A stretch of 64,000 nucleotides of DNA from NCBI GenBank assembly GCA_031552145.1, contig JAVBMV010000007.1:226486-290485 (forward strand), in the 5' to 3' direction. The position numbers and the translations under genes are program-made. The notes beneath the pieces were generated by a model. It saw nothing but the letters and a program-made list of their open reading frames with translations, made no database searches and was not told the DNA's origin. Shown here in pieces: positions 12,472 through 33,583 of the stretch. Each line of letters opens with the position of its first letter. The first letter of the stretch is position 1. The DNA is from Myxococcales bacterium (GTDB lineage: Bacteria > Myxococcota > Myxococcia > Myxococcales > UBA5297).

Positions 12472-15400
12472 CTAGGGCGTCGTTACATAGAGCTCGAATT
12501 GCCCCTTGGAGCTGTCAGCATCCACGATGATGAAGTAGGTGTGGTTTGGGATGGCGGGAGAGATGGTCACGCTTTTGGCCGAGGTGTTCGAGGTGAGCGT
12601 GGCGCCGACGCAGCTGTTTGCATCGTTGCAGCTCGAATTGACCGAGACGAAACCTGCCCAGTAGGTGCTGACGCGCGAGTTGTCGATCACGACGGTAAAG
12701 AGGGCACTTGTCTTGGGGGTGTAGCTGTAGACGAGGTCGGGTCCGTTGCCGTTCGAGGTTGCGGTGTAGCCGGCGTTGTAGGCCGCGCAGCCGTTGATCA
12801 AGGAGTCTGGTGCGGTCTGAAAGCCAGAGCGCGTCTTGCTGAAGGTGCTGTGGGCGTCGCTTGTCGAACCCATGACGGGGCGGTTGAGCTCGAGCGCGAT
12901 GGCGTCGCCGCAGGTCTGGTTTGGCGGAACGGAACCATCGGCCGCGGGGGTCTTCGTCAGTTCGACGCCGTAGGCCATCGCCGCCGTGGCGCTGATGCCG
13001 CCCTCGATAAAGAGGAAGTAGGTCCCCGGGGGCAGAGTGAGTGAGGTGGCCGTCGTCGGCAAGTTGGGGTTGCAATAGACCTCGGCGTCGCGGGACGTGT
13101 CAGTGCAGGCGGTTCGGATGTAGGCGTAGGCGGTGCCCGAGCTCTTCTTGAGTGTGAGGGTCGTCGTTCCAGTCAGCTCCAGCTTGTAGAGATCCTCCGC
13201 CATGGCCATGGAGGCGAGGCAGTGCCCGCCCGCGAAGCTCTCCGAGGTGGCCTGGGTGATATTCCTCGTGAGGGTGACCGTGCTCGTCGTGCTAGGTGGT
13301 GTGGGGGCTATCCAGTCGAGCGCGCCGAGGTTGTCGCAAGTGTAGTTCATGGGCTTGGCCGTCTCGGCCACGGTCGTGAGGGTGACGTTCAACCTGAAGC
13401 TGCCGAAGGCAGCCGTCGAGACGGAGTCGACCCACAGAAAGTAGGTGCCGACTGGGAGATACTGGTGGCTGAGCTTGCCCGTTCCCGTCGCGACGCCCTT
13501 GCGCCCGATGACATCGCCCTCCGTGCAGGCTGCTCTGAGGTAGAGGACCGGACTGACAAAGTTTGCCTCGATCTCCGAGAGGGAGGCCTCGAGCGACTTG
13601 GGCCCATCCTTGATCTCGAGGCTGTAGACCAGGTCGGCCCCCCACACATACTGATGCGTGCTGGTTCCGACGGAGAGTCGTGAGGAGTCGTTCCGCGCAA
13701 AGCGCAGGTCGCCCGTGGTGGTCGCGGTGAAGGGCCCTGTGCCCGAGAACTCCAGCTTCTCGGGCAAGGTGCAGTCGTCATTCGCGGCATAAGCGAAGGC
13801 GTCGGGCGCCGAGAGGGAGAAGTCGAGCCAGTAGGCGCCGGTATCGTTCGCGGCGTGGCTGTCGATCCAGAGGTACCACTTACCCGCGGGTACCAGGTGA
13901 ATATCGAGTGCCGCGGTGTTGGCCGAGGTGGGGGCGACACAGCCGAAAGAGGGGCTTGAGCTCGGTTCGTCGCAGCGCTTCAACAGGTAGAGGACGGGCC
14001 TAAAACCCGAGGCGACTGCGCTGACTCTGAGGTGCTGTGGCGTGGCGAAGTCGAGCTCATAGACGCGATCGGGCCCCTTCGCCACGGCGCAGGGCGCGGC
14101 GGAGCTATTGGAGCCCTCGTCGATCAGCCCGCTCACGACGGCGGAGCCGTTCGAGAAGGTCACCTTTCCCGCGTCGGGAAAGGGAGAGAGGCAAGTATCG
14201 TTCGCCGCGTAGCGGGGTGCGGGAGCGAGCGAGAGCTCGAGTTGGAAGGGGCCGACGGCCCCGACCTCTTCACTGTCGACGATGACATAGAGCAGCCCCG
14301 AGGTGGCGCGCGTTGCCGAAAGCGTGAGGGGTTGGCCTCGGCGTGCCGAGTTGAGACATGCCAGCTCTCCCGAGGGCGAGGCCGTGCAGTCATTCCTGAT
14401 GTAGAGGGTGGGGGCGAAGCTGGAGGAGAAGGGGGGCTCCTCGGGCGTCAGCGTCGCCGTGAGCCGATAGTTGGCCGGAACCATCACGGGGAAGGCGAGA
14501 TCGGGCCCCTTGGTGGCGTAGCAACTTCCCTCTTGCTGATGCGTCCCCAGCTCTATTCCGGGCAGGTGGAGCGTGCGGCGCCCCGAGGAGTCGATGGCGA
14601 TCGGCTCGGCGCCTGGGTCGCAGAGATCGGGGATGCCCACGGTGGGCGCGTCGAAGGTGAGCGTCAGCGCGAAGAGCGCGCTCTTCGCGTCGGGCGGCGT
14701 CGTGGTCGAGCCCGCGATGAGCCAGTAGTTCCCGGGCGCCAAGGAGTGGAGCGACAGCGTCGCCCTTCCGCCCGCCGGGGCGCTGCAGCCGCGCTCGTCG
14801 GCCCACGTGGCGCTGTCGCATGAGCCAGCGCGGAGCGTCAGTGACGGGAGCAGCGCGCTCTCCATCGCCTCCATCGTCGCGGTAAGCGAGCGCGCTCCCG
14901 CGATGGCCGGGATCGTGAAGGCGTAGACAATGTCGCGACCGTTCGTCGCGGCGCAGGAGCCCTGGTAGTTGGCGCTGGCGCCGCGCAGCGTTCCGCGCAG
15001 CACGTTGGTGCCCGACATATCCAGGCCGGAGATCGGGATGCCCGGACAGAGATCGCCGGAAGCCGCGCCGTAACGTACGCTCGCGTGGAGCGTGAAGGCG
15101 CCGCTCTGGGTCGGGGTGTAGCTGTCGACGATGACGCGATACTGGGACTGGCCTCTCATCGGCACCTGATAGACGAGCACCGCGGGGAGGGCGCGCGTGC
15201 CCGGCAGCGCGCAACGCGGATCCCGCGCCTCGCTGAAGCAGTTGGCGGAAATGTCCGTGGAGAGCGACAGGACCGGGAACATGGCGGTGCTGGTGTCGGC
15301 CTGTACGGAGAGCTCGATTGTTGCCGCGGAGAGCGCCAGCCTCTCGGGATCCAGTTCGAGCGCATACACGATGTCGCTACCGGAGGCGGCCTTGCAGCCA

Positions 15401-18400
15401 GTATGGCCATGGTCGACTTCGATCGCGGTGTCGCCCATCAGCGTCGCCTGATCTTCGTGCAGCTCGATCTTGATCGGTGCTTCGCAGCTCCCTCCGACTG
15501 GCAAGAGCTCTACCGCGATGTCGAAGCGCGTCCTGACGGTGGCGCTCATCGAGTCGAGCCAGAGGTAGTAGTCGCCGGGGCTTTGCAGGGTGGTACGGAG
15601 CATCGCCTTCGCGCCGGTCGTCACCCTGGAGCAGAGCTCTCCCGCCGTCGTGGTGCAGGTCGTTCGCCGCAAGATGATTGCCGCGCCCGAGGTCGAGCCG
15701 TCAATCGTCGCGGTGATGAGGAGATCGGCTGGCATGGGGAGCTCGGGGATGGAGAGCTTGTAGATGTTCTCGACACCGGGGAGCGATCGCTGGAGCGCCG
15801 AGGTGTTGCAGGCATCGAGCGACGCGAGGGTGTTCTGCGCGGAGGCGTCGTTGAAGCCAAAGAACGAGAGCTTTCCATCGGTTAGCGTCAGCGGCGTAGC
15901 CTCGGCCTCGGCGCAGGACATGTTGGTACCCGTTGCCAGCGCTACCTCGAGCGCGTAGACGTCCCCCTCCGCGGAGAGGCCATCGACGATGATGAAGTAG
16001 GTCCCCTCGATGAGCGAGCTGATCGAGGCGCGCTTCGTCGCGCCCGCCGCCACCTCGGCGAAGGCGAGCTCATCGGCCGCCGCGCCTGAATCGCAGCTCT
16101 TGCGCAGGTAGAGCGCCAGGGCGAGGCCGGGCTTCATCGATTGATTGGTGAGCTGAGTCGAGAGGGTGTAGCGCTTCCCGGCGGGGACCACCACAGAGTA
16201 GATGGCCTCCCCTCCCGGCGTGGGTTTGGTTGAGGAGCTTTGTGTTCCAACCAGTCCGAAGGTGCTCCCTGTCAGATGCTGGCTGCCGATGATGCTCGGG
16301 GTGCCGGCAGCCCCCTCCCGCAGCACCTGCGTCGCGCTGGCGCAGGTGGCGTTGGTCTGCGGCGGCGGCGCTTCGTCGCTCTCGATGCGCAGCTCAAAGG
16401 CGCCGCGCAGCGGACTCACCGAGTCGACGATCAGGTAGTAGATGGCGGGCGTCAGGTTGCCCTGGAGCGTGACGGGGCCACCCCGCTCCGAGGCCGAGGC
16501 CATCAGCTCCTCCTCGGGCAGCGCGTCTTCACAAGTGCCCTTGCGCAGGTAGAGAAGCGCCTCGCCGTCGAAGGAGGAGAAGGCCGCCGTCGCGGTGAGA
16601 TGCTTGGGCGAACCCTGAACCTCGAATCGGTAGATCAGATTGCCGCCATTGCCCTTTGCCAGCTTCAGGGAGGCGAGGGTGTTCGCGGCGAAGGTGGTGT
16701 CGCCCGGAATCGTCAGGAGGCCCGGCGCGATGGGCAGCGAGATGGGCTCGGCCGCCGCGCAGGAGTCGGGAAGGCGCGAAGCGAGTGGCGTCAGTGAGAG
16801 ATCGAGCGAGAAGGAGCCGGCGGAGTTGGAGCTGCCATCGACGATGAGGAAGTAGTTGCCGCCGGCCATGAAGGCGTCGAGGGTCACCATTCCCGGCGTC
16901 GCACTCTCGGCGGAGCAGGCCAGCTCGGCATGGGTGTCGAGGCTCGCGCACTGCCCGTCGCTGCGTAGGTAGAGCGCCGGGCTATAGGCTACATCGTTGG
17001 TGTGGGCGCGAATGGTGAGCCGACCGGGCTCGCCGACCGCGATCTTGTAGACCAGATCGGGACCATCGAGCGGCGCGTCGACCTTGCCGCAGGTGCCGCG
17101 GTAGTCGGCGCGCGCGTTGGCCGTCGTGGCGTTGAGCACCTGGGCGCGAAAGCTGGGCGCCGCGAGCGAGAGGCTCTGTGGCGTGGAGCAGGTGTCGTTC
17201 GCGGGAGCGATGCCGGCGTCGACGCCCTCAACCTTCAGCTCGAACTTCCCTTCCTTCTCTTCCAGAGAGTCGACGAAGAGGTAGTTCTTCCCCGTGACGT
17301 TGGGGAGCGTGAGTACGAGCGGGCTGGAGACGCCGCCGACGCGGCATGCGCGCTCCTCCGCCAAGGCGCCGCAGCCAGAGCGCACATAGAGGATCGGCAC
17401 ATACTTCGCTTCCTGGGGCGTCAGCGTGATGGTGAGCGTCTTTACCGCGCTGCCCAGGTCGACCAGATAGACCAGCTCGGCGCCCGTGGAGTCGGCGCGA
17501 CAACCCGCCACCGAGTCGTGAGTGGCGTTGGCGGTGCTGGCGATGGCGTTGTCGCCCAGGGCGAGGTCGGCCGCATCTTCACAGAGGTCGTTCCAGTCGA
17601 TGCCGGAGAGTTCGAGCGCGATCTCTAGGTCGAAGAGCCCTTCGCTCCCCGCGGCGCTGTCGACGACCAAGATCCAGCTGCTGCCCGGCGCACGCCGCGC
17701 GGCGCTCGCCTCCGCTTTTCCGCCATCGAGGGATGCACAGGTCAACTCGCTGCCCTGCTCCTCGCAGTTCCTGCGCAGCGAGAGCGTGGGGATGAGCGCG
17801 CTGCCGGGGCGCGGCGTGACGGTGGCCTTCAGGTTGTAGGTGGCGTCATTGGGGAGATTGAGCTTCCAGAGCAGCTCTCGGCCCGAGCTACCAGCGCCAC
17901 AGGAAGCGCTTCCCAGACTCGCGCTGCCGAAGGAGGTGTCGGAGATGGCGGTGTAGATCAGCTCCGTGGGGGAGAAGGTCACCTCACGCACCGTGGAGCA
18001 GGTGCCATTGTCGGCGCGCGGCAGAAGCGCCGCCTGGAGCATGAAGGCGCCCTCCGAGCGGTCGGCTCCATCGACGACGAGGTACCAGCTACTGCCCGCG
18101 GCGAGCTCGGGCGCGTGGAGGATGGTGTAGGCGCGCCGCGCGGTGTTGGGGGCGCATGCGGTTGCCCCGGTCCCAGGCGCGCACTCCGGTACCAAATAGA
18201 GCGCGGGTCTGTAGCCGCTGCTCGGCTCCGCGGCGTCGACGCGGGCGACGAAGGAGGAGGGCTCGTTGACGCTGAAGTGAAAGCTCACCTCTCCGCCCGA
18301 GTTGGGCAGGCAGGAGGGGGAGAGGTCATTGCGCGCGTCGACGTTGGTGCCGCTTTCGCTGGCTAAGCCCTCGGGATCGAAGGTGAGCGCGATGGAGGTT

Positions 18401-20541
18401 GTGGGGCCGCAGCTGTCGCCCGCGGGCGCGGCGCCTCGCTCCGGTAGCTCCACTTCCAGGTTGAAGTACCCCGAGCGTTCGCCGCCCAGCTCGTCGTTGG
18501 CGCTATCGACGACGAGGAAGTAGGTGCCGGGCGCCAGCCCGAAATAGCCACCCGTGATTGGCGCGGCTTCCTCTCCACGCACGCACTTGGTCGTTCGTGC
18601 ACAAAAGAGCGTGGAGTCGATATCGTCGCAGGCAGTGCGCAGTGAGATGATTGGGCAATAGTTTGAAAGAACGCTCGGCGCAAGGCTGTAGCGGACGGTC
18701 CTGTCTCGCCCCTCGGGCACGACGAAGGAGTAGACCAAGTCGCGCCCGTTAGCCGAGGCGCAGGGCGAGGAGAAGGCGTCGGTTGCCCCCGCGGTAGTGC
18801 CGCTCTTGAAGGCCGTGGGGGTGAGGCTGGTAGGAGGCGAGGTGAGGAACTCCAGCGGGGCCATCGAGCTATTGCAGATGTCGTTGTAGATGGGCGCGCC
18901 GAAGGAGACCTCGAGCGCGAAGTCGCCGCCACCGAGGGTGCCGCCCACACGAAGCATGATCGCTTCACCGGCCGAGAGAAGCGGAACGAAGAGTTCCGCC
19001 GCGATGGGCTGGTTGGGAGTTCGTCCCTCGATGTAGCCCGCCTTAGGGCCCACATCGCAGAGCCGCTCCTCGCCTGCCTCGTTCAATAATGCAAGTCCGG
19101 GAAACCATGGGTTGGCCCAGTAGAAGTCGGAATAGTTCCTTGGCGCCTTGGGGATGAGAGAGGCATGTATGCTGACGTCGGCTTCGAGCGAGAAGGGGAA
19201 GAAGACGTCGCTGCTGGTGAGCGCGCAAGCGCCAGGATTGGATCGCGGTTCGACACTGGCAAGCGCCGTGGAGCCTTCGATGTTGAGCAGCGACTCGCCC
19301 GCTACTACCGTGGGCTGCAGCTCATAGGTCTGCTCGAGGGAATCGTTCTCGGGAGAGGGCTGTTCCTCGGCGGTGATTGTAACCCGCATCTTTCCGGTGC
19401 CGAAGCCGCTTGCGGGGTGGCCCTGCCCAATCCAGAGGTAGACGGTGCCGGGGCCGACGCCGGCGGCGCGCAGCTTGATCGGGTTGCTGTTGGTGAAGGC
19501 AGAACAGGCGAGCTCCAGATCGTGCGTCAGCGAGTGGTCGAGACACTCGGAGGTGAGATGCAGGTAGGGGATGACGCCGCTCTCGGGGAAGCCCTCTACT
19601 ACGAGCCGGCTCGGCCGCTCCAGCGCGATGGCGTAGACGACGTCATTGTTGTAGCTCTGCAGGCAGGAACCCTGTCTGTTCTTGGTCGCGCCCCGCGTGT
19701 CGACCTCGAACTCCACATATCCCTCGATCAACGTGAGTGGCTCGGCCTCGCCGCAACCGTCGTTGCCGGGAGCCGCGGTCGTGGGTTGGCAGGCGTGGTT
19801 GACGCACCGGCTCGTGCCCTCACAGGAGGTGCCGAGCAGCGCGGCGCAATCGACCTTTCGCGGCGCTCCGCAGTTGTCGAGCCCCTGGTATGGATAGGTG
19901 CCGCACTCCTTGCCATTGCGTTGGCAGAAGAGCGTGTCCGACTCGGGCGGGCAGACACAGGTGTTGTCGATGCAGTCGTTATTCGGAGCGGTGCAAGTGT
20001 CGGGACAGGCGACGTCGCGTTCGGTGCCGCAGGCGTCGGTCGTCAGAAGCCGGCCACACGCGACACTGAAGGCCGTGCAGAGCGCCGAGTCGGCAGGTGG
20101 CTTGCAGCAGGATCCCTTGCCCGCTCCCGCGGTGCAGAGCTCCGCGCTGTCGCAGGTGTTGGGGCAGTCGTAGGTGCGTTGGTCGCCGCACAGGTTCTGC
20201 CCGCTGTATTTGCCGCAGATTACGCCGTGCCGTTCACAGAACTCCTCGCGCGACTCCTCTTCGCATTTGGAGACGCACTGCTGCTCCGCGTCGCACTCTT
20301 CGTTTGCGCCGCAAGGACCGCATTCCCCGTCGCAGCCATCGTCGCCGCATTCTTTCCCCGCACAGTCGGGGATGCATTCGGGGCCCGTGTCCGCGTCGGC
20401 TCCCACATCAGTGTCGCCCTTGAGGCCCACATCGCCCGTGTCGGAAGGGGGGAAGGGGTCGCTGGGGCTTGCGGGGCCGCAGCTGCTGGCGCCGAGCGCG
20501 CAGGTCAGGAGTGCTGCTATCGAGATAAGGGTCGTACGCAT
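12472..20541 (-). CDS. Giant lipoprotein: ~256-aa Cys-rich head plus 17 tandem four-Cys PPC-like modules (2689 aa)
   Basis: ATG at 20541 is preceded by AAGGAGAAGCG. Lipoprotein signal MRTTLISIAALLTCALGASSCGP. The head contains CGDDGCDGECGPC and 3 x FCxRxGxxCG...CG...DC units. Then 17 modules with the same skeleton as gene 1-5945, e.g. DLVYKI...PALYLRSDGQC...ELACS...GGNYFLIVDGSSNSAGSFSLDLSL. The track start at 20586 adds 15 implausible residues. Confidence 0.9.
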   Translation of the reverse strand: MRTTLISIAALLTCALGASSCGPASPSDPFPPSDTGDVGLKGDTDVGADADTGPECIPDCAGKECGDDGCDGECGPCGANEECDAEQQCVSKCEEESREEFCERHGVICGKYSGQNLCGDQRTYDCPNTCDSAELCTAGAGKGSCCKPPADSALCTAFSVACGRLLTTDACGTERDVACPDTCTAPNNDCIDNTCVCPPESDTLFCQRNGKECGTYPYQGLDNCGAPRKVDCAALLGTSCEGTSRCVNHACQPTTAAPGNDGCGEAEPLTLIEGYVEFEVDTRGATKNRQGSCLQSYNNDVVYAIALERPSRLVVEGFPESGVIPYLHLTSECLDHSLTHDLELACSAFTNSNPIKLRAAGVGPGTVYLWIGQGHPASGFGTGKMRVTITAEEQPSPENDSLEQTYELQPTVVAGESLLNIEGSTALASVEPRSNPGACALTSSDVFFPFSLEADVSIHASLIPKAPRNYSDFYWANPWFPGLALLNEAGEERLCDVGPKAGYIEGRTPNQPIAAELFVPLLSAGEAIMLRVGGTLGGGDFALEVSFGAPIYNDICNSSMAPLEFLTSPPTSLTPTAFKSGTTAGATDAFSSPCASANGRDLVYSFVVPEGRDRTVRYSLAPSVLSNYCPIISLRTACDDIDSTLFCARTTKCVRGEEAAPITGGYFGLAPGTYFLVVDSANDELGGERSGYFNLEVELPERGAAPAGDSCGPTTSIALTFDPEGLASESGTNVDARNDLSPSCLPNSGGEVSFHFSVNEPSSFVARVDAAEPSSGYRPALYLVPECAPGTGATACAPNTARRAYTILHAPELAAGSSWYLVVDGADRSEGAFMLQAALLPRADNGTCSTVREVTFSPTELIYTAISDTSFGSASLGSASCGAGSSGRELLWKLNLPNDATYNLKATVTPRPGSALIPTLSLRRNCEEQGSELTCASLDGGKAEASAARRAPGSSWILVVDSAAGSEGLFDLEIALELSGIDWNDLCEDAADLALGDNAIASTANATHDSVAGCRADSTGAELVYLVDLGSAVKTLTITLTPQEAKYVPILYVRSGCGALAEERACRVGGVSSPLVLTLPNVTGKNYLFVDSLEEKEGKFELKVEGVDAGIAPANDTCSTPQSLSLAAPSFRAQVLNATTANARADYRGTCGKVDAPLDGPDLVYKIAVGEPGRLTIRAHTNDVAYSPALYLRSDGQCASLDTHAELACSAESATPGMVTLDAFMAGGNYFLIVDGSSNSAGSFSLDLSLTPLASRLPDSCAAAEPISLPIAPGLLTIPGDTTFAANTLASLKLAKGNGGNLIYRFEVQGSPKHLTATAAFSSFDGEALLYLRKGTCEDALPEEELMASASERGGPVTLQGNLTPAIYYLIVDSVSPLRGAFELRIESDEAPPPQTNATCASATQVLREGAAGTPSIIGSQHLTGSTFGLVGTQSSSTKPTPGGEAIYSVVVPAGKRYTLSTQLTNQSMKPGLALALYLRKSCDSGAAADELAFAEVAAGATKRASISSLIEGTYFIIVDGLSAEGDVYALEVALATGTNMSCAEAEATPLTLTDGKLSFFGFNDASAQNTLASLDACNTSALQRSLPGVENIYKLSIPELPMPADLLITATIDGSTSGAAIILRRTTCTTTAGELCSRVTTGAKAMLRTTLQSPGDYYLWLDSMSATVRTRFDIAVELLPVGGSCEAPIKIELHEDQATLMGDTAIEVDHGHTGCKAASGSDIVYALELDPERLALSAATIELSVQADTSTAMFPVLSLSTDISANCFSEARDPRCALPGTRALPAVLVYQVPMRGQSQYRVIVDSYTPTQSGAFTLHASVRYGAASGDLCPGIPISGLDMSGTNVLRGTLRGASANYQGSCAATNGRDIVYAFTIPAIAGARSLTATMEAMESALLPSLTLRAGSCDSATWADERGCSAPAGGRATLSLHSLAPGNYWLIAGSTTTPPDAKSALFALTLTFDAPTVGIPDLCDPGAEPIAIDSSGRRTLHLPGIELGTHQQEGSCYATKGPDLAFPVMVPANYRLTATLTPEEPPFSSSFAPTLYIRNDCTASPSGELACLNSARRGQPLTLSATRATSGLLYVIVDSEEVGAVGPFQLELSLAPAPRYAANDTCLSPFPDAGKVTFSNGSAVVSGLIDEGSNSSAAPCAVAKGPDRVYELDFATPQHLRVSAVASGFRPVLYLLKRCDEPSSSPSFGCVAPTSANTAALDIHLVPAGKWYLWIDSHAANDTGAYWLDFSLSAPDAFAYAANDDCTLPEKLEFSGTGPFTATTTGDLRFARNDSSRLSVGTSTHQYVWGADLVYSLEIKDGPKSLEASLSEIEANFVSPVLYLRAACTEGDVIGRKGVATGTGKLSHQYLPVGTYFLWVDSVSTAAFGSFRLNVTLTTVAETAKPMNYTCDNLGALDWIAPTPPSTTSTVTLTRNITQATSESFAGGHCLASMAMAEDLYKLELTGTTTLTLKKSSGTAYAYIRTACTDTSRDAEVYCNPNLPTTATSLTLPPGTYFLFIEGGISATAAMAYGVELTKTPAADGSVPPNQTCGDAIALELNRPVMGSTSDAHSTFSKTRSGFQTAPDSLINGCAAYNAGYTATSNGNGPDLVYSYTPKTSALFTVVIDNSRVSTYWAGFVSVNSSCNDANSCVGATLTSNTSAKSVTISPAIPNHTYFIIVDADSSKGQFELYVTTP

Positions 20542-20801
20542 CGCTTCTCCTTGCGAGAGAACACATTTGCCCACCGTGTCGCACACTTGTGGCTATCACA
20601 GGCGCAGGAAGGAGAGAAGCGTGGGGGAACGGTGCCGAGAAGAGATGCCAAATCATTGCCCGCGGCGGCGCCAAGCTCCAATTCGCGGATTGAGCGTTGA
20701 GGCGGAAGCCATATTCCAATGACGATTGCCCTGTCTGCGAAAATCCCCTAACATCCCTCGTTTCACATGCTGTGAGGATGCTGGATAGAGCGGGAGTGAA
20801 C

Positions 20802-22506: not shown

Positions 22507-22654
22507 GTAGGGCGCTGCTTGCTGCGCCCTTGGTCGTTGTGTCGCCATGTTTCGGACATCGACGTGCATGTAGGGGCGACCGGCGGTCGCCCCCAACGGT
22601 GCCCGAGACGCGCCTGATCTTTTGACGTGCGAGGGCGCGGCAAGCAGCGCCCCT
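22507..22654. repeat. Cluster of three GC-rich hairpins in a convergent intergenic region (bidirectional terminator / REP-like)
   Basis: Hairpin 22509-22530 (AGGGCGC...GCGCCCT). Hairpin 22573-22593 (GGGGCGACC-GGC-GGTCGCCCC, 9-bp stem). Hairpin 22632-22654 (AGGGCGCGGCAAGCAGCGCCCCT). GTGCATGTAGGG is repeated at 22501 and 22564. Confidence 0.7.
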
Positions 22655-26634: not shown

Positions 26635-27690
26635 ATGCCCATACCTGTGCGAGCGAACGCTCGATTGGCCCACTTGCTGGCCGCCCCATTGGCTGCCTTG
26701 TCGATCGGCTTCTCCGGCTGCGCCCACTCGCCTTTCGATGAGCCGACGGGAACGCGCGCGCCCTATGTGCCCTACCGCATCGTCTCGCAGTTCGACCTGG
26801 AGCGCGAGGCGGCGAGATCCGAGAGCGCCGGGATGCCCGCGGGAGAGCGCCCGAAGCAGGGCGAGCACGAAACGGCCCAGGCGCGGCGGCGCAGGCTGGA
26901 GCAGAGCCTCGACCACTTCGTCAGGGGAGAGCGGGCGGGGCGCGAGCAGGTTGCCCACTCGGACCCCATGCCCGAAGAAGCGCGGCTGCGCTGGGCGCGC
27001 GTTCTGGCGGAGGTGGATGATTTCATGGTGGCCGATCGCACTGGCCGAGCGCTGGAGCTGGTTCGGGCTCGCACCGCGCTCGACGCGGAGCTGGAGCTCG
27101 ATCGGCGTCACTATGGCGCGCTCCCCTCGGGGCTGGAGCCGTCGATCAAGGCGCGCTGGATGGCGCTGAGCGCGCGGCTCTCGCGGCAGGAGGGGCGCCA
27201 GCAGAGTGCTGGCGCCGAACAGGAGGAGGCGCGCGGGTTCCCCTCGGGCGATCCGGACGCGCTCATCTGGCCGCTCACACCCGTGACCATCACCTCGCTC
27301 TATGGCTACCGGTTCGATCCCTTCAGCGGCGCTGGGCGCGAGCACAAAGGCGTCGATCTTCTCGCCGAGCAGGGCCAGAAGGTGAGGGCCGCCTCCGACG
27401 GCAGGGTGCTCTCGGCCGGCTGGGCGGGGGGGCATGGCCACTCGATCGAACTCTCGCATCGAGGCGAGCGGCAGACGCGCTATAGCCATCTCTCGAAGGT
27501 GTTGGTGCGATCGGGCCAGCGCGTGAAGCGGGGACAAGTGATCGGGCTCGCGGGCTCGAGTGGGCGCTCCACCGGCACGCATCTCCACTTCGAGCTGAAG
27601 GAGGGGGGGAAGCAAGTCGATCCCATGGCTTCGCTGATGGATCCCGTCGTGCTCGACCTCTCGCAAGAGGCGATGGGGGATGGGGAGTAG
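26635..27690 (+). CDS. M23-family (LytM-type) metallopeptidase lipoprotein
   Basis: Start taken at ATG 26635, giving the lipoprotein signal MPIPVRANARLAHLLAAPLAALSIGFSGC. M23 motifs HKGVDL, GHGHSIELSH and GTHLHFELK. Confidence 0.85.
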   Translation: MPIPVRANARLAHLLAAPLAALSIGFSGCAHSPFDEPTGTRAPYVPYRIVSQFDLEREAARSESAGMPAGERPKQGEHETAQARRRRLEQSLDHFVRGERAGREQVAHSDPMPEEARLRWARVLAEVDDFMVADRTGRALELVRARTALDAELELDRRHYGALPSGLEPSIKARWMALSARLSRQEGRQQSAGAEQEEARGFPSGDPDALIWPLTPVTITSLYGYRFDPFSGAGREHKGVDLLAEQGQKVRAASDGRVLSAGWAGGHGHSIELSHRGERQTRYSHLSKVLVRSGQRVKRGQVIGLAGSSGRSTGTHLHFELKEGGKQVDPMASLMDPVVLDLSQEAMGDGE

Positions 27691-27709
27691 GGCAAGCGGT
27701 GCGGTTATT

Positions 27710-27739
27710 TTGGCGACAATGCGCCTTTATCGCTAGAAT
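27710..27739 (+). promoter_or_regulatory. Putative sigma70-like promoter of the hipB-hipA-methyltransferase operon
   Basis: TTGGCG (27710-27715), 18-nt spacer, TAGAAT (27734-27739), in an AT-rich patch. ATG at 27749 is only ~10 nt downstream, so the transcript would be short-leader or leaderless. Confidence 0.35.
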
Positions 27740-27748
27740 AATGGCGCC

Positions 27749-28240
27749 ATGGCCCAAAAGATCTCGCCCCTGCTTCCCCCAACCGCGGAGCTGTTGCGAC
27801 AGCTCGGCGCACGGCTCAGGCTCGCCCGGCTGCGGCGCGGATTGACGGCGCGCCAAGTCGCGGAGAGAGCCGGCATGGCCCCGATGACCCTTCGCGGAGT
27901 AGAGAGGGGCGCGGCGGGAGCGACGATTGGCGCCTATGTAGCCGTCCTGCAGGTGCTCGGGCTCGAGAGCGCGCTGGCCCTGCTCGCCAAGAGCGACGAA
28001 GTGGGGCGCGAGCTGCAGGACGCCCAACTTCCGAGCAGGCCACGGCCCAGACGCGTCGCAGGCGGAGGGCGCGCCTCGAGTGCGAAGAAACATGAAGCGC
28101 CTCATGATGCTCCTTCGAAGGCGCAGAGTAAGGCTCCGAGCTGGGCCGCCGCCGCCGGCTTTGTCACCTCCGAGGAGCTGGCACGCGCGCGCTCCGCACC
28201 GCACCCCAGCACCCACACCGACGAAGACGAGCAGGAGTGA
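27749..28240 (+). CDS. hipB: XRE-family HTH protein, HipB-type antitoxin
   Basis: HTH LRLARLRRGLTARQVAERAGMAPMTLRGVERG. The stop overlaps the hipA start (GTGA, 28237-28240). Long, low-complexity C-terminal tail. Confidence 0.8.
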   Translation: MAQKISPLLPPTAELLRQLGARLRLARLRRGLTARQVAERAGMAPMTLRGVERGAAGATIGAYVAVLQVLGLESALALLAKSDEVGRELQDAQLPSRPRPRRVAGGGRASSAKKHEAPHDAPSKAQSKAPSWAAAAGFVTSEELARARSAPHPSTHTDEDEQE

Positions 28241-29511
28241 ACGTGTCCTCGATCGCGGTCTATGCGGGCTGGGGTGGCATCGGCGGGCCCACGCGCCTCG
28301 GCTGGATCCATCTACGCCAAGGTGGCGCGCGTGAACTCTTCGAATTCGAACTCGACGAGGGTGCGCTCGAGGATCCTGCCTTCGCCGGTCTTCACCTCGA
28401 CCCGCGCATAGGCTGGTACCCGGGGCGCCAGCATCCGCCGCATGGGTTCGCCACGTTTGGGCTCTTCAGCGACGCCAGCCCCGATCGATGGGGCCGTCTC
28501 TTGATGCGGCGGCGTCTGGAGCGGGAGCAGCGCGCGGGGCTCGTGGATAAGAGCGCGAGGCTGCGCGAGTCGGACTATCTGTTGGGGGTCCACGATTCTT
28601 TCCGCGTGGGTGGACTGCGCTTCCGCCTGGAAGATGCGGGTGCGTTTCTGGACGACAGGCATGGGATGGCAGCGCCTCCGTTGGTTCGGCTGCGCGAGTT
28701 GGAGGCGGCCAGCTTGGCCTTGGAGCGCGACACGGAGAACAGCGCGCCCGAGGGAGACGATTGGCTGAAGATGCTGCTGGCGCCAGGAGGCTCACTGGGC
28801 GGCGCGCGCCCCAAGGCGAGCGTGACCGATCCCGAGGGTGGGCTCTGGATAGCCAAGTTCCCCAGCGCGGGCGATCTTCACGACGTCGGTGGCTGGGAGA
28901 TGGTCGTGAATACGCTCGCTCACCAATGTGGACTCTCTGTTCCCGAAGTGATGGTGCAGCGCTTCTCGGGGCCGCACCACACCTTTTTGGTGAAGCGCTT
29001 CGATCGCGAGGGAGAGAGGCGCCTTCATTTTGCCTCCGCCATGACGTTGACCGGTCATAAAGATGGCGAAGATGGCTCGGTGGGTGTGAGCTATCTGGAG
29101 CTTGCGCAGGTGCTCGTCAAAGAGGGGGCAGAGGTCGAGCGTGACCTGCGGGAGCTGTGGTCGCGAGTGGTCTTCAATGTCCTCGTCTCCAACGCGGACG
29201 ATCACCTGCGCAACCACGGTTTTCTGCTGCGCCCCGGCAGAGGATGGTCCCTCTCGCCCGCCTATGATCTCAACCCCGTACCCATGGCCCAAGGGCTCAA
29301 GCTGAACATCAGCGAGGCGGACAATGCGCTCGAGCTCGCGCTCGCCCTGGAGGTCGCGCAGTTCTTCCGCGTGGGTGCAAGGGAGGCGAGCGAGATCGTG
29401 GCGCGATTCAAAGGCGTGGTTCGAGGGTGGCGGGCTATCGCCGCGCGCCTCTCGCTCCCGCGGCGTGAACAGGAGCGGCTGAGTGACGCCTTCCGGGCGA
29501 GTGAGAACTGA
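28237..29511 (+). CDS. hipA: HipA-family serine/threonine kinase toxin
   Basis: N-terminal HipA coupling region (IAVYAGW...RLGWIHL...FEFELDEGAL). GGSLGGARPKASV. Catalytic NADDHLRNHGFLL...WSLSPAYDLNP. Confidence 0.9.
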   Translation: MNVSSIAVYAGWGGIGGPTRLGWIHLRQGGARELFEFELDEGALEDPAFAGLHLDPRIGWYPGRQHPPHGFATFGLFSDASPDRWGRLLMRRRLEREQRAGLVDKSARLRESDYLLGVHDSFRVGGLRFRLEDAGAFLDDRHGMAAPPLVRLRELEAASLALERDTENSAPEGDDWLKMLLAPGGSLGGARPKASVTDPEGGLWIAKFPSAGDLHDVGGWEMVVNTLAHQCGLSVPEVMVQRFSGPHHTFLVKRFDREGERRLHFASAMTLTGHKDGEDGSVGVSYLELAQVLVKEGAEVERDLRELWSRVVFNVLVSNADDHLRNHGFLLRPGRGWSLSPAYDLNPVPMAQGLKLNISEADNALELALALEVAQFFRVGAREASEIVARFKGVVRGWRAIAARLSLPRREQERLSDAFRASEN

Positions 29512-30350
29512 TGAAGACGAATATCGAGCTCATCCAGGGCGACAACCTCGAGATAACCCGGCGCTTCGCCGACGCATCGTTCGACCTTATCTACATCGAT
29601 CCTCCCTTCAACACGGGGCGCGCCCAGTCGCGCACGCGCATCCGCGTGGCGCGCGCCGAGGGGGACGCCCCGGGCGACAGGACGGGCTTCCAGGGACGGC
29701 GCTACAGGACGGAGGTGCTGGGGAAGAGCGCCTACGCCGACGCCTTCGACGACTACATGGAGTTCCTGCTGCCGAGGCTTTTAGAGGCGCACCGGCTGCT
29801 CGCGCCGAGCGGCAGCTTCTTCCTGCACCTCGACTACCGCGAGGTCCATTACGCGAAGGTGGCGCTCGACGCGATCTTCGGTCGCGAGAGCTTCATCAAC
29901 GAACTGATCTGGGCCTACGACTACGGCGCGCGCGCGACGAAGCGCTGGTCGCCCAAGCATGACACCATTCTTTGGTATGCCAAGGATCCGGAGAACTACT
30001 GCTTCAACTACGATGAGATCGATCGCATCCCCTACATGGCCCCCGGCCTCGTGGGGCCCGAGAAGGCGGCGCGGGGGAAGACGCCCACCGACACCTGGTG
30101 GCACACCATCGTCAGCCCTAATGGCAAGGAGAAGACGGGCTACCCCACGCAGAAGCCGCTGGGGATCCTCACCCGCATCGTCCGCGTCCACTCGCGCCCC
30201 GGCGACAGGTTGCTCGACTTCTTCGCCGGCAGCGGCTCCTTCGGAGAGGCGGCGGCGCGCCTGGGGCGCCACGTCACCCTGGTGGACGAGAGCCCCGAGG
30301 CGATGGAGGTGATGCGGCGTCGTCTGGGGTGTTACCTGACGGCGCCATGA
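29511..30350 (+). CDS. Beta-class DNA methyltransferase (N6_N4_Mtase family; the DPPF motif suggests N6-adenine)
   Basis: Motif IV FDLIYIDPPFNTG lies N-terminal and motif I LDFFAGSGSFGEAA lies C-terminal (beta-class order). ATG 29511 overlaps the hipA stop (TGATG). No adjacent restriction endonuclease gene was recognised. Confidence 0.85.
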   Translation: MKTNIELIQGDNLEITRRFADASFDLIYIDPPFNTGRAQSRTRIRVARAEGDAPGDRTGFQGRRYRTEVLGKSAYADAFDDYMEFLLPRLLEAHRLLAPSGSFFLHLDYREVHYAKVALDAIFGRESFINELIWAYDYGARATKRWSPKHDTILWYAKDPENYCFNYDEIDRIPYMAPGLVGPEKAARGKTPTDTWWHTIVSPNGKEKTGYPTQKPLGILTRIVRVHSRPGDRLLDFFAGSGSFGEAAARLGRHVTLVDESPEAMEVMRRRLGCYLTAP

Positions 30351-30430
30351 AGGGCGCGGCAAGCGGCGCCCATCTCGACGCTGCATCTGGAGGAGGCGCG
30401 AGGGAAGGGCGCGGCAAGCGGCGCCCCTAC
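30349..30430. repeat. Two tandem copies of the GAAGGGCGCGGCAAGCGGCGCCC hairpin filling a convergent intergenic region
   Basis: Copy 1 (30349-30371) starts inside the methyltransferase stop codon. Copy 2 (30404-30430) ends on the stop codon (CTA, 30427-30429) of the minus-strand gene. The same element occurs at 22631-22656 and inverted at 22507-22530. Confidence 0.75.
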
Positions 30431-30969
30431 TTTGCTTTCGCCGCGCGCGCCTGGACGAGAGCAATGAACTCGTCCGAGATCGTCGTCATCGAGCGCGCGA
30501 AGGCGTTGAACCTGGCTCTGGCGCGGCGCGCATTCTTGTCGCTCTCCTCGGAGTCGAGCGGAGCCAACTCCAGCGACGCCAGCGCATCTTTCTGCCGCTG
30601 AGTCAGGAGCTTTCCAATCTCTTTGCCATCATCACCTCGAGTGGGCCTCTGGCGGAGCGCGGCGCCCTCCTTCAGGGTCGAGGCGCTGATCTCGCCCTGC
30701 TGCTTCATCTCGTCGCGCGCTTTCTTCAGCGCGGCGACGATGGCAGGGCGCTTCTTCTCGAGGTCCGCCTTGAACTGCTCGGCCCTGGCGCGCGCCTCTT
30801 TGAGCAGCGGCAGGATCTGACGTGCCTGCTCGGGAGTCAGGTCGAGCGCCTTGTCGATCTTGAGCGCCGAGATCTCCCGCTTCAGCGCGGCGACCTCGGG
30901 GTCATTCTCCGCGGCAGAGGCGGCGGTGGGTAGGAGCAGCAGGGAGAGCGCGATGGCGAGTCGTTTCAT
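30427..30969 (-). CDS. Periplasmic Spy/CpxP-like (LTxxQ-motif) helical protein
   Basis: Signal peptide MKRLAIALSLLLLPTAASA. LTPEQ motif. K/E/A-rich helical sequence. Last gene of the sigma/anti-sigma operon. Confidence 0.65.
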   Translation of the reverse strand: MKRLAIALSLLLLPTAASAAENDPEVAALKREISALKIDKALDLTPEQARQILPLLKEARARAEQFKADLEKKRPAIVAALKKARDEMKQQGEISASTLKEGAALRQRPTRGDDGKEIGKLLTQRQKDALASLELAPLDSEESDKNARRARARFNAFARSMTTISDEFIALVQARAAKAK

Positions 30970-31041
30970 GTCGTTCGTCCTTGTCGTTGACGGTCGAGGG
31001 CAGGTGTTTCATGGGTGAGAGACCCTCGGCGCGCGATTAGG

Positions 31042-31422
31042 TTAAGGCGCGTCGAGCTGGGCGAATGGAGAGAGGTGGGCGAGCTCTTCGGGGTAGCTCT
31101 CGAGGAGTTCACCGCTGCACCCCAAGTCGTAGGCCCAGGTGGGCCACTCCTCGGGGACTGGCTCCACCCACACAAAATCATCTGGCGCGCGCACCTCGCC
31201 GAAGTCGAAGAGCCAGAGACCGAGCGCCGCCGTGGCGACGGAGATGCCTCCAGCCAGCGCGAGCCTTCTGGGCCACGGCGTGCGCTGGGCATGAGGGAGC
31301 TTCAACCGCGCGGCCGCTGTTGGGGTGGCGCCCGCGGTCGATTCCAGAAGCGCGAGCACTTCGCGTGCCTTTGCGCATTCGGCGCAGCGCGCTGGATCGG
31401 GACAGTCGTGGAGGGCTTTCAT
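31042..31422 (-). CDS. zf-HC2-type anti-sigma factor
   Basis: N-terminal H-x-C-x6-C-x2-C (MKALHDCPDPARCAECAKA). One TM helix (LALAGGISVATAALGLWLF). The start overlaps the sigma-factor stop (ATGA, 31419-31422). Confidence 0.7.
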   Translation of the reverse strand: MKALHDCPDPARCAECAKAREVLALLESTAGATPTAAARLKLPHAQRTPWPRRLALAGGISVATAALGLWLFDFGEVRAPDDFVWVEPVPEEWPTWAYDLGCSGELLESYPEELAHLSPFAQLDAP

Positions 31423-31991
31423 GACTCTTCCTCACTGCGAATGAGCGACCGCAGGCGCGCGGTCGCCTGATGGAAGGTGACTCTCGCGTTGATCTCGGTG
31501 ATCGAGAGCGCGCAGGCGAGCTCCGCGAAAGAGAGTTCTGCGTCGATCCGCAGCGACACCACCTGGCGTTGGCGAAGCGAGAGCCGCCCCAGGCAGTCGC
31601 GCAGGCGCCGCCGCTCCTCCTCCATGACGAGCGGCTCGTGGTTCGTCGTCGCCACCTCGAGTGGCAGGCCCAAGAGGCGCCTCGCGCAGTCGCGAAGATA
31701 GTTGCGGCAGAGGTTCGAGGCTGCCTTGAAGAGATAGGGCTTGAAGGCGCCCGGCGCGCGCAGTCTCCGCAGCTTCGGCAGCGTCGCGACGAAGGTCCGT
31801 TGAACCAGCTCCTCCGCCTCGTCTGTGTCGCGCGCGTAGCGAAAGGCGAGGCGATAGAGCTGTCGGTAGTAGCGCGCGAAGAGCAGATCGAGCGCGCGCT
31901 GGTCGCCCTCGAGGTAGAGGCAAACCAGCTCGTGGTCGGCCGCGGGATCCGTGGCAGTGGCAAGAGGAAGGGCCTGGGCGATAGCGTGCAC
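31419..31991 (-). CDS. ECF-type sigma-70 factor
   Basis: Region 2 (LLFARYYRQLYRLAFRYARDTDEAEELVQRTF) and region 4 (LSLRQRQVVSLRIDAELSFAELACALSITEINARVTFHQATARL). The track start at 32117 would leave no space before the divergent gene at 32120. GTG 31991 is chosen but uncertain. Confidence 0.75.
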   Translation of the reverse strand: MHAIAQALPLATATDPAADHELVCLYLEGDQRALDLLFARYYRQLYRLAFRYARDTDEAEELVQRTFVATLPKLRRLRAPGAFKPYLFKAASNLCRNYLRDCARRLLGLPLEVATTNHEPLVMEEERRRLRDCLGRLSLRQRQVVSLRIDAELSFAELACALSITEINARVTFHQATARLRSLIRSEEES

Positions 31992-32054
31992 GATTGGAGA
32001 ACACGCGGCAGGGCAAAATGTTAGCGCCGGGGTCGCACGTCTTTCTTCGTTCCC

Positions 32055-32083
32055 TTGTGTCAGTACTCTCGGGAGGCTAAGAT
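32055..32083 (+). promoter_or_regulatory. Putative sigma70-like promoter for the ATPase gene at 32120
   Basis: TTGTGT (32055-32060), 17-nt spacer, TAAGAT (32078-32083), in an AT-rich patch. Imperfect inverted repeat CTAAGAT...ATCTTGG overlaps the -10. GAGG lies 7 nt before ATG 32120. Confidence 0.35.
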
Positions 32084-32119
32084 GTTTTACGTTATCTTGG
32101 CTCTCTAAATGAGGCAACC

Positions 32120-33583
32120 ATGGCCAAAGACTGGGGTTTTTATGGCAGAAAGAGCGAGCTCGAGGCCATGGGCAAGATCTTGGAGCGCGGGCGCTGGTTT
32201 TTCCTGAAGATCACGGGGAGGCGGCGTATCGGCAAGAGCAGTCTCGTTCGACAGGTCATCGGATCAGGGAGGGGGCGCAAGGTCCTCTACATCCAGATCC
32301 CGGACTCCGATCCTTCGGGCGTGGTCAGCGCCGCCCGCGACTTCATGAAGACCTTCGGGATCGATTCGGGACTTCCCGGCGACCTCAGAAGCCTCGCGGC
32401 GCGCTTGGCCTCGCTCGTGGAGGAGGGGTGGGTGGTTGCGCTGGACGAGTTCCAGTACTTCCATCGAAAGGCGCTCTTCGAGTTCACGTCGCAGCTGCAG
32501 GTAGAGGTGGATCGGCTCTCCGAGAAGGCCGAGCGCGTGCGCGGCGGGATGATCGTGCTCGGCTCCGTGCACACCGAGATGGTCGCGCTCTTGGAGGAGC
32601 GAACGGCGCCGCTCTTCAACCGAATCACCGACGAGATCGAGCTGGGTCACCTCGATGTCGCGTCGCTGTTGGAGATGTTGCAGGTGCATGCAGATCTCGC
32701 TCCGCGCCGCCTGCTCTTCCTGTGGAATCTCTTCGAGGGCGTACCAAAATTCTACCGCGACTGCTTCGAGCGCGGCGTCCTCGGAGCAGAGAGGGAGGTG
32801 CTGCTGGAGCAGATGTTCTTCGGCAGCAGCAGCCCGCTGCGCGGCGAGGCCGACAACTGGTTCCTACGCGAGCTTCAAGGGCGATATGACTTCGCGCTCA
32901 AGTACATCGCGGCCCATCCAGGCTGCTCCAACGCCGATGTCGTCGCGCACACGGTGGCGGTGGAGCCCGAGAAGAAGCGGCTCATCGTTGGATACCTGAG
33001 GGCACTGGAGGAGCGGTTCGAGATGATCGAGCGCCTGCAGCCCATCTTCGCTCCGCCCAAGAGCAGGAACGGGCGCTTCTACATTCGAGACAACTTCTTG
33101 CGGACCTGGCTGGCTGCGCTCTCGGTCCCGGCGGCTTCGATCAACTTCAGGCCTGTAGCCGAGCTGGTGCGCCAAGCGAACGAACGACTCGCTGAGTCCG
33201 AGGGATATGGACTGGAGCGGCTGGCAGCGGTCCTCTACGAGGAGCGGAGCCGCAAGGGAGTTGGCGACTTTGGCGTCACGAAGATGGTGCGTGGCTGGTG
33301 GGATCGCGCTGGAACAGAGATCGATCTCGTCGCGGTGAACGAGCAGGAGCGGGTGATTCGTCTCGGTTCATGCAAGCGCACGCCGGAGCGGCTCGTCGCG
33401 TCGTTGAAGGCGTTCGACGGACACGTGGCGCGCTTCAGGGAGACGCGGCGCGAGCTCGGAGATTTCAAGTTGGAGAAGGTGGCGATTGCGCCGGAGCTTA
33501 CGCCTGAGCAGCGGCGCAAGATCGAGGAGCAGGGCTACCTGCCGCAGTCCCTCTCCGAACTGACGGCGCCGTTGAAGAACTAG
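32120..33583 (+). CDS. Arch_ATPase-type AAA+ ATPase with C-terminal DUF234-like PD-(D/E)xK domain
   Basis: Walker A GRRRIGKSSL; Walker B VVALDEFQ; C-terminal GTEIDLVAVNEQERVIRLGSCKRT. Confidence 0.8.
   Translation: MAKDWGFYGRKSELEAMGKILERGRWFFLKITGRRRIGKSSLVRQVIGSGRGRKVLYIQIPDSDPSGVVSAARDFMKTFGIDSGLPGDLRSLAARLASLVEEGWVVALDEFQYFHRKALFEFTSQLQVEVDRLSEKAERVRGGMIVLGSVHTEMVALLEERTAPLFNRITDEIELGHLDVASLLEMLQVHADLAPRRLLFLWNLFEGVPKFYRDCFERGVLGAEREVLLEQMFFGSSSPLRGEADNWFLRELQGRYDFALKYIAAHPGCSNADVVAHTVAVEPEKKRLIVGYLRALEERFEMIERLQPIFAPPKSRNGRFYIRDNFLRTWLAALSVPAASINFRPVAELVRQANERLAESEGYGLERLAAVLYEERSRKGVGDFGVTKMVRGWWDRAGTEIDLVAVNEQERVIRLGSCKRTPERLVASLKAFDGHVARFRETRRELGDFKLEKVAIAPELTPEQRRKIEEQGYLPQSLSELTAPLKN

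Follow-up and report, generated by a model that had tools for sequence, protein, structure and literature searches.

A hipBA toxin-antitoxin pair abutting a solitary DNA methyltransferase gene in a Myxococcales bacterium: a probable lineage-specific juxtaposition rather than a three-gene system

In a 64,000-nucleotide stretch of DNA from a Myxococcales bacterium (contig JAVBMV010000007.1, positions 226,486 to 290,485; hereafter the window), the region 27700-30450 contains three open reading frames (ORFs) on the same strand, which encode a HipB-type antitoxin, a HipA-family kinase and a DNA methyltransferase. This arrangement is most likely a canonical hipBA pair and an unrelated solitary adenine methyltransferase gene, co-transcribed from the hipB promoter as a result of a lineage-specific juxtaposition. 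Judged by sequence comparison, it is a singular neighbourhood, and it does not constitute a new system of three genes. The original prediction had proposed a HipA-based, methylation-linked abortive-infection or addiction module, and this proposal was not borne out by reciprocal surveys of the relatives of the two proteins, in which hipBA was found at 0/80 methyltransferase loci and the methyltransferase at 0/81 HipA loci.

Close homologues of the methyltransferase number in the thousands, with 71-82% identity among the top 120 listed. With one genome taken per GTDB species, relatives were present in at least 583 genomes, and the best 80 loci (64-75% identity), spanning Myxococcota, Planctomycetota, Gemmatimonadota, Chloroflexota, Sumerlaeota, Deinococcota, Verrucomicrobiota, Spirochaetes and Actinomycetes, were surveyed. 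HipA, HipB and the other genes of the window were searched for by tblastn within 6 kb of the methyltransferase and were found in none of these loci, 69 of which had at least 1.8 kb of upstream sequence. Even with the threshold relaxed to E = 10, a profile hidden Markov model recognized no HipA-like ORF in the 874 kb of 85 methyltransferase loci, and when the flanking ORFs of the 80 loci were clustered, neither an endonuclease nor any other conserved neighbour or partner emerged. The homologues nearest to the methyltransferase (80-82% identity) are found in a phage-like contig, among housekeeping genes, and directly after a peptidase U32 gene. These comparisons indicate that the methyltransferase family is solitary and widespread and has no fixed partner. 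For a DNA methyltransferase, the degree of conservation in this family is unusual (64-82% identity, in at least 583 species genomes from many phyla), and its members vary in both N- and C-terminal extensions. The closest homologue of all (82% identity) is encoded at 3780-4679 of a Logan contig (SRR22388073), surrounded by short same-strand genes with phage-like content (DUF7768, dGTP_diPhyd_N, ART-PolyVal, RNase_T), which suggests that the family is probably carried by phages or prophages as well; in the phage collection, only distant relatives with less than 37% identity were found.

The survey from the side of HipA gave the complementary picture. HipA homologues at 65-70% identity are abundant, those bearing names being mostly from Betaproteobacteria, and 76 metagenome loci (39-70% identity) together with 5 further loci, including plasmids, were analysed. 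A HipB homologue lies upstream of hipA in every related locus with enough upstream sequence, and the junction between the two genes measures -5 to +19 nt in nearly all loci, the offset of one locus having been misparsed. The methyltransferase was present in 0/76 metagenomic loci, 48 of which had at least 850 nt of downstream sequence (31 of those 48 were at least 60% identical), and no ORF in the 81 loci (388 kb) matched a profile of the methyltransferase family at E = 10, for which the positive controls scored 575-611 bits. A conserved third gene downstream of hipA in the relatives was ruled out, because the ORFs at this position are mutually unrelated: they encode transporters, a glutathione S-transferase-like protein, a PIN protein, a recombinase and an RmuC-like protein, and the distance from hipA to the nearest same-strand ORF is at least 47 nt. 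Pairs of a helix-turn-helix protein and HipA without the methyltransferase were seen for the HipA of highest identity (70%) and for three plasmid copies (60-62%); next to them are integrases, a Fic gene, PD-(D/E)XK nucleases and a toxin-antitoxin pair of the PIN type. Such pairs, from plasmids and from groundwater, thus accompany integrases or other toxin-antitoxin genes. By this comparison, hipBA is a self-contained mobile two-gene unit. The methyltransferase without hipBA, and hipBA without the methyltransferase, are thus the rule, an outcome that the original prediction had itself named as the sign of an accidental adjacency.

The phylogeny of HipA proteins distinguishes 10 gene organisations, namely hipBA, hipBST, hipEB, hipH, hipRF, hipRG, hipMP, hipL and hipIN along with hipJS, and neither methyltransferase nor methylase appears as a word in that paper (Gerdes et al., 2021; PMC8262856). 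The earlier impression that the three-gene arrangement is not among the described systems agrees with this source; as a system, the arrangement did not recur in independent genomes among the 80 methyltransferase and 81 HipA loci surveyed, and the only other copy of the trio is a sequence-identical contig in another assembly, from a sequencing run.

The identities originally assigned to the three genes were confirmed by matches to HTH_31, HipA_C and N6_N4_Mtase (Table 1). The hipB product also matches the HipB-type models of NCBIfam (couple_hipB and HipB) weakly, below their cut-offs. Among 15 aligned homologues, the catalytic motifs of HipA, consisting of the Gly-rich loop APGGSLGGARPKA, SNxDDHLRNHG and AYDxNP, are invariant or nearly so, and the C-terminus of HipA coincides with those of the homologues; the length of 422 aa and the conservation of the first 180 residues would suit a full-length HipA rather than the short HipT type; the Pfam N-terminal HipA domain was not detected. 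In the methyltransferase, which also matches the PADLOC model MTase_II PDLC03300 (454 bits), DPPF occupies residues 30-33 and FAGSG, of the FxGxG type, residues 238-242, both being invariant among homologues. Because DPPF lies N-terminal to FAGSG, the order of the motifs is that of the beta class, as had been proposed. The DPPF motif points to adenine as the methylated base, and the enzyme is predicted to modify adenine at N6. Its start is only 4 residues ahead of the conserved core, and many homologues carry variable N-terminal extensions. On one side its neighbours are the genes for HipA, HipB and an M23 peptidase, and on the other those for a secreted protein of 180 aa, a protein of 126 aa and an extracytoplasmic function (ECF) sigma factor. 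The earlier statement that no endonuclease gene is adjacent therefore holds by the protein families of these neighbours; no restriction endonuclease is among them, and the locus does not have the composition of a type II restriction-modification system.

Table 1. Features of the hipB-hipA-methyltransferase locus, in window coordinates.
Feature	Position	Strand	Description	Match
Sigma-70-like promoter candidate	27710..27739	+	TTGGCG, 18-nt spacer, TAGAAT; A+T-rich gap upstream of hipB	
hipB	27749..28240	+	XRE-type helix-turn-helix antitoxin, 163 aa, long C-terminal tail	HTH_31 39.5 bits, HTH_3 30.3 bits
hipA	28243..29511	+	HipA-family Ser/Thr kinase toxin, 422 aa	HipA_C (PF07804) 167 bits, cut-off 30.5
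Methyltransferase	29511..30350	+	Solitary beta-class N6-adenine-type DNA methyltransferase (predicted specificity), 279 aa	N6_N4_Mtase (PF01555) 146.5 bits
Palindromic repeat pair	30352..30426		Two exact 20-nt copies of GGGCGCGGCAAGCGGCGCCC, 30352-30371 and 30407-30426	

Both junctions of the locus are tight. As read directly from the sequence, the hipA stop codon TGA and the methyltransferase ATG have one base in common (TGATG, 29509-29513), exactly as had been described. For the hipB-hipA junction, an overlap of the hipB stop with the hipA start had been reported at GTGA, 28237-28240. This sequence exists, and a hipA start at GTG 28237 would indeed overlap the hipB stop and give a protein of 424 aa, but a second in-frame GTG at 28243, preceded at 5 nt by a perfect AGGAG and chosen by the public gene call (422 aa), is the likely hipA start. 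An exact-protein look-up of the 424-aa form gave no match. The N-terminal alignment of HipA with its homologues is compatible with either start, and the junction is a 4-nt overlap or a 2-nt gap depending on the start chosen. The public call begins hipB at ATG 27875 (121 aa), by which the helix-turn-helix is cut away. In 37/49 loci, however, the alignment of the HipB homologue encoded ahead of a related hipA begins at residue 1 of the 163-aa form; 27749 is therefore the better start, and the public hipB annotation is probably truncated.

A single promoter candidate had been noticed upstream of hipB, and a scan of 27500-30600 agreed with this observation, since the site in Table 1 and one overlapping variant were the only sigma-70-like sites (2 hits, against 0.1 expected from shuffles) and no promoter-like site was found inside hipA; the scan used the sigma-70 consensus only, from which the promoters of a Myxococcota-like genome of 66% G+C may differ. 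The -10-like TAGAAT ends 9 nt ahead of the hipB ATG, so that little or no leader may be present on the hipB mRNA. The hipB start codon is overlapped by ATGGCGCCAT (27741-27750), a perfect palindrome of 10 nt that could be an operator. Given the tight junctions and the sole promoter candidate, the three genes are probably co-transcribed, and the proposal that they constitute one expression unit is to this extent probable. Overlaps of start and stop codons are, however, common between same-strand bacterial neighbours, and the genes for the 126-aa protein and the ECF sigma factor, 1 kb away, overlap by 4 nt as well. The overlap thus speaks for co-expression and not for a functional link, and a tight stop/start overlap is by itself no proof of a functional module.

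The pair of hairpins that had been placed immediately after the methyltransferase stop is present, but it is a repeat element and not a dedicated terminator. The two copies of GGGCGCGGCAAGCGGCGCCC, each of which folds into a 6-bp G+C stem, sit between the methyltransferase gene (+) and the converging ORF of the 180-aa protein (-). Further copies are located at 22510-22529 (-) and 22633-22652, in another gap between convergent ORFs, so that the window contains 4 copies, arranged in pairs, against 0.18 expected by chance. GGGCGCGGCAAGCGGCGCCC looks like a REP-like (repetitive extragenic palindromic) genomic repeat rather than a terminator belonging to this unit. The two copies at 22.5 kb flank a related hairpin, GGGGCGACCGGCGGTCGCCCC. 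An intrinsic terminator after the methyltransferase was considered and rejected: there is no T-run, the terminator scan made no call, and the region as a whole is no more stably folded than its shuffles (z = -1.45).

The codon composition of hipBA differs from that of the methyltransferase gene. The G+C content at third codon positions (GC3) is 0.768 in both hipB and hipA, 0.904 in the methyltransferase gene, 0.918 in the glycogen phosphorylase gene (GlgP) and 0.923 in the phosphofructokinase gene (PFK). This contrast is suggestive of separate histories, in which hipBA would be less adapted to the host and the methyltransferase gene would be resident. GC3, the methyltransferase start near the conserved core and the intact end of HipA fit a model in which hipBA was inserted next to, and upstream of, the resident methyltransferase gene and the junction was then compacted to TGATG; this direction of insertion is the probable one. 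In the resulting unit, HipB is expected to bind and neutralise HipA and to repress the promoter upstream of hipB, and HipA would be a growth-arresting kinase, for which toxicity is predicted. Transcription of the methyltransferase gene most likely occurs by read-through from the hipB promoter, and its translation most likely by re-initiation at the hipA stop, and the activities of HipA and of the methyltransferase would have no mechanistic link.

Several points weigh against this account. The neighbouring genes for the 126-aa protein and the ECF sigma factor also have a GC3 near 0.76, and no closely related genome is available, so that the insertion history is read from GC3 alone. When the adjacent glycogen phosphorylase was used as a synteny anchor, its best matches (74-75% identical) had no gene order in common with the window. 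About 80 loci were sampled on each side, with which an adjacency frequency of a few percent is compatible, and the methyltransferase profile was built from one family, so that very distant PF01555 members could escape it. In addition, the 1-nt stop/start overlap and the promoter-free hipA probably make the methyltransferase gene dependent on the hipBA promoter, which would amount to some regulatory coupling in this organism, even if accidental in origin.

Farther along the window, a gene at 32120-33583 (+) encodes a 487-aa ATPase_2/DUF234 protein whose full length is covered by a match to PDC-S27, a candidate defence model of PADLOC (688 bits); the gene is divergent from the operon of the ECF sigma factor and the 126-aa and 180-aa proteins (30427-32117, -). 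A 2704-aa ORF at 12472-20586 (-) has no Pfam match at E <= 0.001; it may encode a giant protein of uncharacterised type or, the genome being rich in G+C, be a spurious ORF on the antisense strand. An Rfam scan of the whole window gave no match, and a tRNA scan found none.

Among the other explanations of the locus, one is that the methyltransferase gene has its own transcript, from a promoter in the 3' part of hipA, and that the three genes are not one expression unit. The methyltransferase family is normally alone with its own promoter, and a promoter unlike the sigma-70 consensus could have been missed by the scan; yet no promoter-like site was detected within hipA, the hipA stop and the methyltransferase start share a base, and this methyltransferase lacks the N-terminal leader of many homologues, so a separate transcript is considered unlikely. 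It has also to be asked whether hipBA, the methyltransferase gene and the gene of the PDC-S27 ATPase, each an immunity or selfish element in its own right, have gathered in a permissive spot with no joint mechanism, the toxin-antitoxin module helping to retain the segment and the association existing at the level of the island. The strong PDC-S27 match, the integrases, Fic, PIN pair and nucleases beside related hipBA on plasmids and mobile elements, and the phage-like contig of the closest methyltransferase homologue would suit such an islet. It is nevertheless improbable, because no integrase, transposase or tRNA gene lies near the locus, the flanks are occupied by the housekeeping genes for PFK, GlgP, an M23 peptidase and ZnuA, the ECF sigma operon separates the methyltransferase from PDC-S27, G+C does not change across the region, and PDC-S27 occurs in 0/80 methyltransferase loci.

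The explanation closest to the original prediction is a lineage-specific functional trio, in which HipB/HipA autoregulation extends to the methyltransferase and genome methylation is thereby tied to the state of the toxin-antitoxin pair, in the form of a methylation-linked abortive-infection or addiction module or of an epigenetic switch that fires upon HipB degradation. The TGATG junction with the single promoter candidate, a methyltransferase start that leaves no space for a leader of its own, and the PDC-S27 candidate defence gene 1.8 kb away are in keeping with such a trio, and HipA-family kinases have been validated in phage defence, albeit in another architecture with a DUF3037 partner (PMC13092281, PMC12548924). 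These points are outweighed by the occurrence of the trio in one organism only, by the reciprocal surveys, by the different histories to which GC3 points and by the absence of such an organisation from the HipA phylogeny, and the trio is very unlikely. To our knowledge, moreover, no mechanism connects the targets of HipA (tRNA synthetases) with DNA methylation, which also counts against it. There is an equally slight chance that the locus represents an early stage of the same idea, at which a normally autonomous methyltransferase has only just become part of a methylation switch or addiction cassette with HipBA as its gate, and methylation would rise upon HipB degradation; support for a newly evolved coupling of this kind comes from the junction and from nothing beyond it.

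The surveys remove a tempting but unsupported candidate from the list of defence systems, and, if hipBA was inserted beside a resident gene, the locus illustrates cleanly how a mobile toxin-antitoxin pair can take over that gene's expression. The strikingly conserved solitary methyltransferase family, with its 64-82% identity across many phyla, may merit separate study.

Comparison with known systems is in accordance with two unrelated components. The analogy with Pgl/BREX type 2 that had been drawn originally is nominal only: in both cases one locus combines genes for a protein kinase and a DNA methyltransferase, but the kinase HipA is not of the PglW type, and the beta-class enzyme, with its 279 aa, is not one of the large methyltransferases of the PglX type. 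No Pgl/BREX model is among the PADLOC matches listed for HipA, which has only three weak PDC-M03A matches (best 22 bits), or for the methyltransferase, whose best 25 of 53 matches are to methyltransferase models of the type II, type III, orphan or mad2 kinds. The genes nearby fall into other families, and no PglY, PglZ, BrxD, BrxHI or other Pgl/BREX gene is among them. The analogy therefore fails in every testable feature, and membership in Pgl/BREX type 2 is ruled out. The formal layout of hipB, hipA and the methyltransferase gene resembles that of C-protein restriction-modification operons, which consist of a helix-turn-helix controller, a toxic endonuclease and a methyltransferase. The toxicity of a protein kinase, unlike that of the endonuclease in these operons, is beyond counteraction by DNA methylation. 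Such a system was rejected here because the toxic gene encodes a kinase and the layout is not conserved in the surveyed loci of either side.

In the phage defence system HipAD (DS-6, PDC-M66), a HipA-like kinase is paired with a DUF3037 protein (PMC13092281, PMC12548924). The present locus is similar in having a HipA-family kinase as the presumed toxic effector, neutralised by a partner encoded alongside, but differs in that the partner is a classical helix-turn-helix HipB (HTH_31) and not DUF3037; there is no PDC-M66 match, and the locus does not belong to this system. The methyltransferase resembles the CcrM-type solitary beta-class methyltransferases and M.RsrI in the order of DPPF and FxGxG within a PF01555 domain, and the CcrM type also in its lack of a partner endonuclease and its wide, conserved distribution. 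Its scores against CcrM and M.RsrI are, however, only 73-100 bits (among solved structures, 100 bits with M.RsrI, the nearest, and 66 bits with CcrM), which places it in a separate family, and it differs from its own homologues in lacking the variable N-terminal extension and in abutting hipA.

Against the PDB, this HipA matches that of E. coli only marginally (21.6 bits, E = 9.5e-4), which points to a divergent clade, the best solved relatives being HipT proteins at about 35 bits; other differences from known hipBA modules are the undetected Pfam N-terminal domain of this HipA and a long HipB (150-183 aa) with a C-terminal tail. Nevertheless, as in HipBA of E. coli K-12, the gene for an XRE helix-turn-helix antitoxin is located directly upstream of, and tightly joined to, that for a HipA_C kinase of about 420 aa, and, as in hipBA modules generally, the two genes form a unit that is kept in relatives, often on plasmids and mobile elements.

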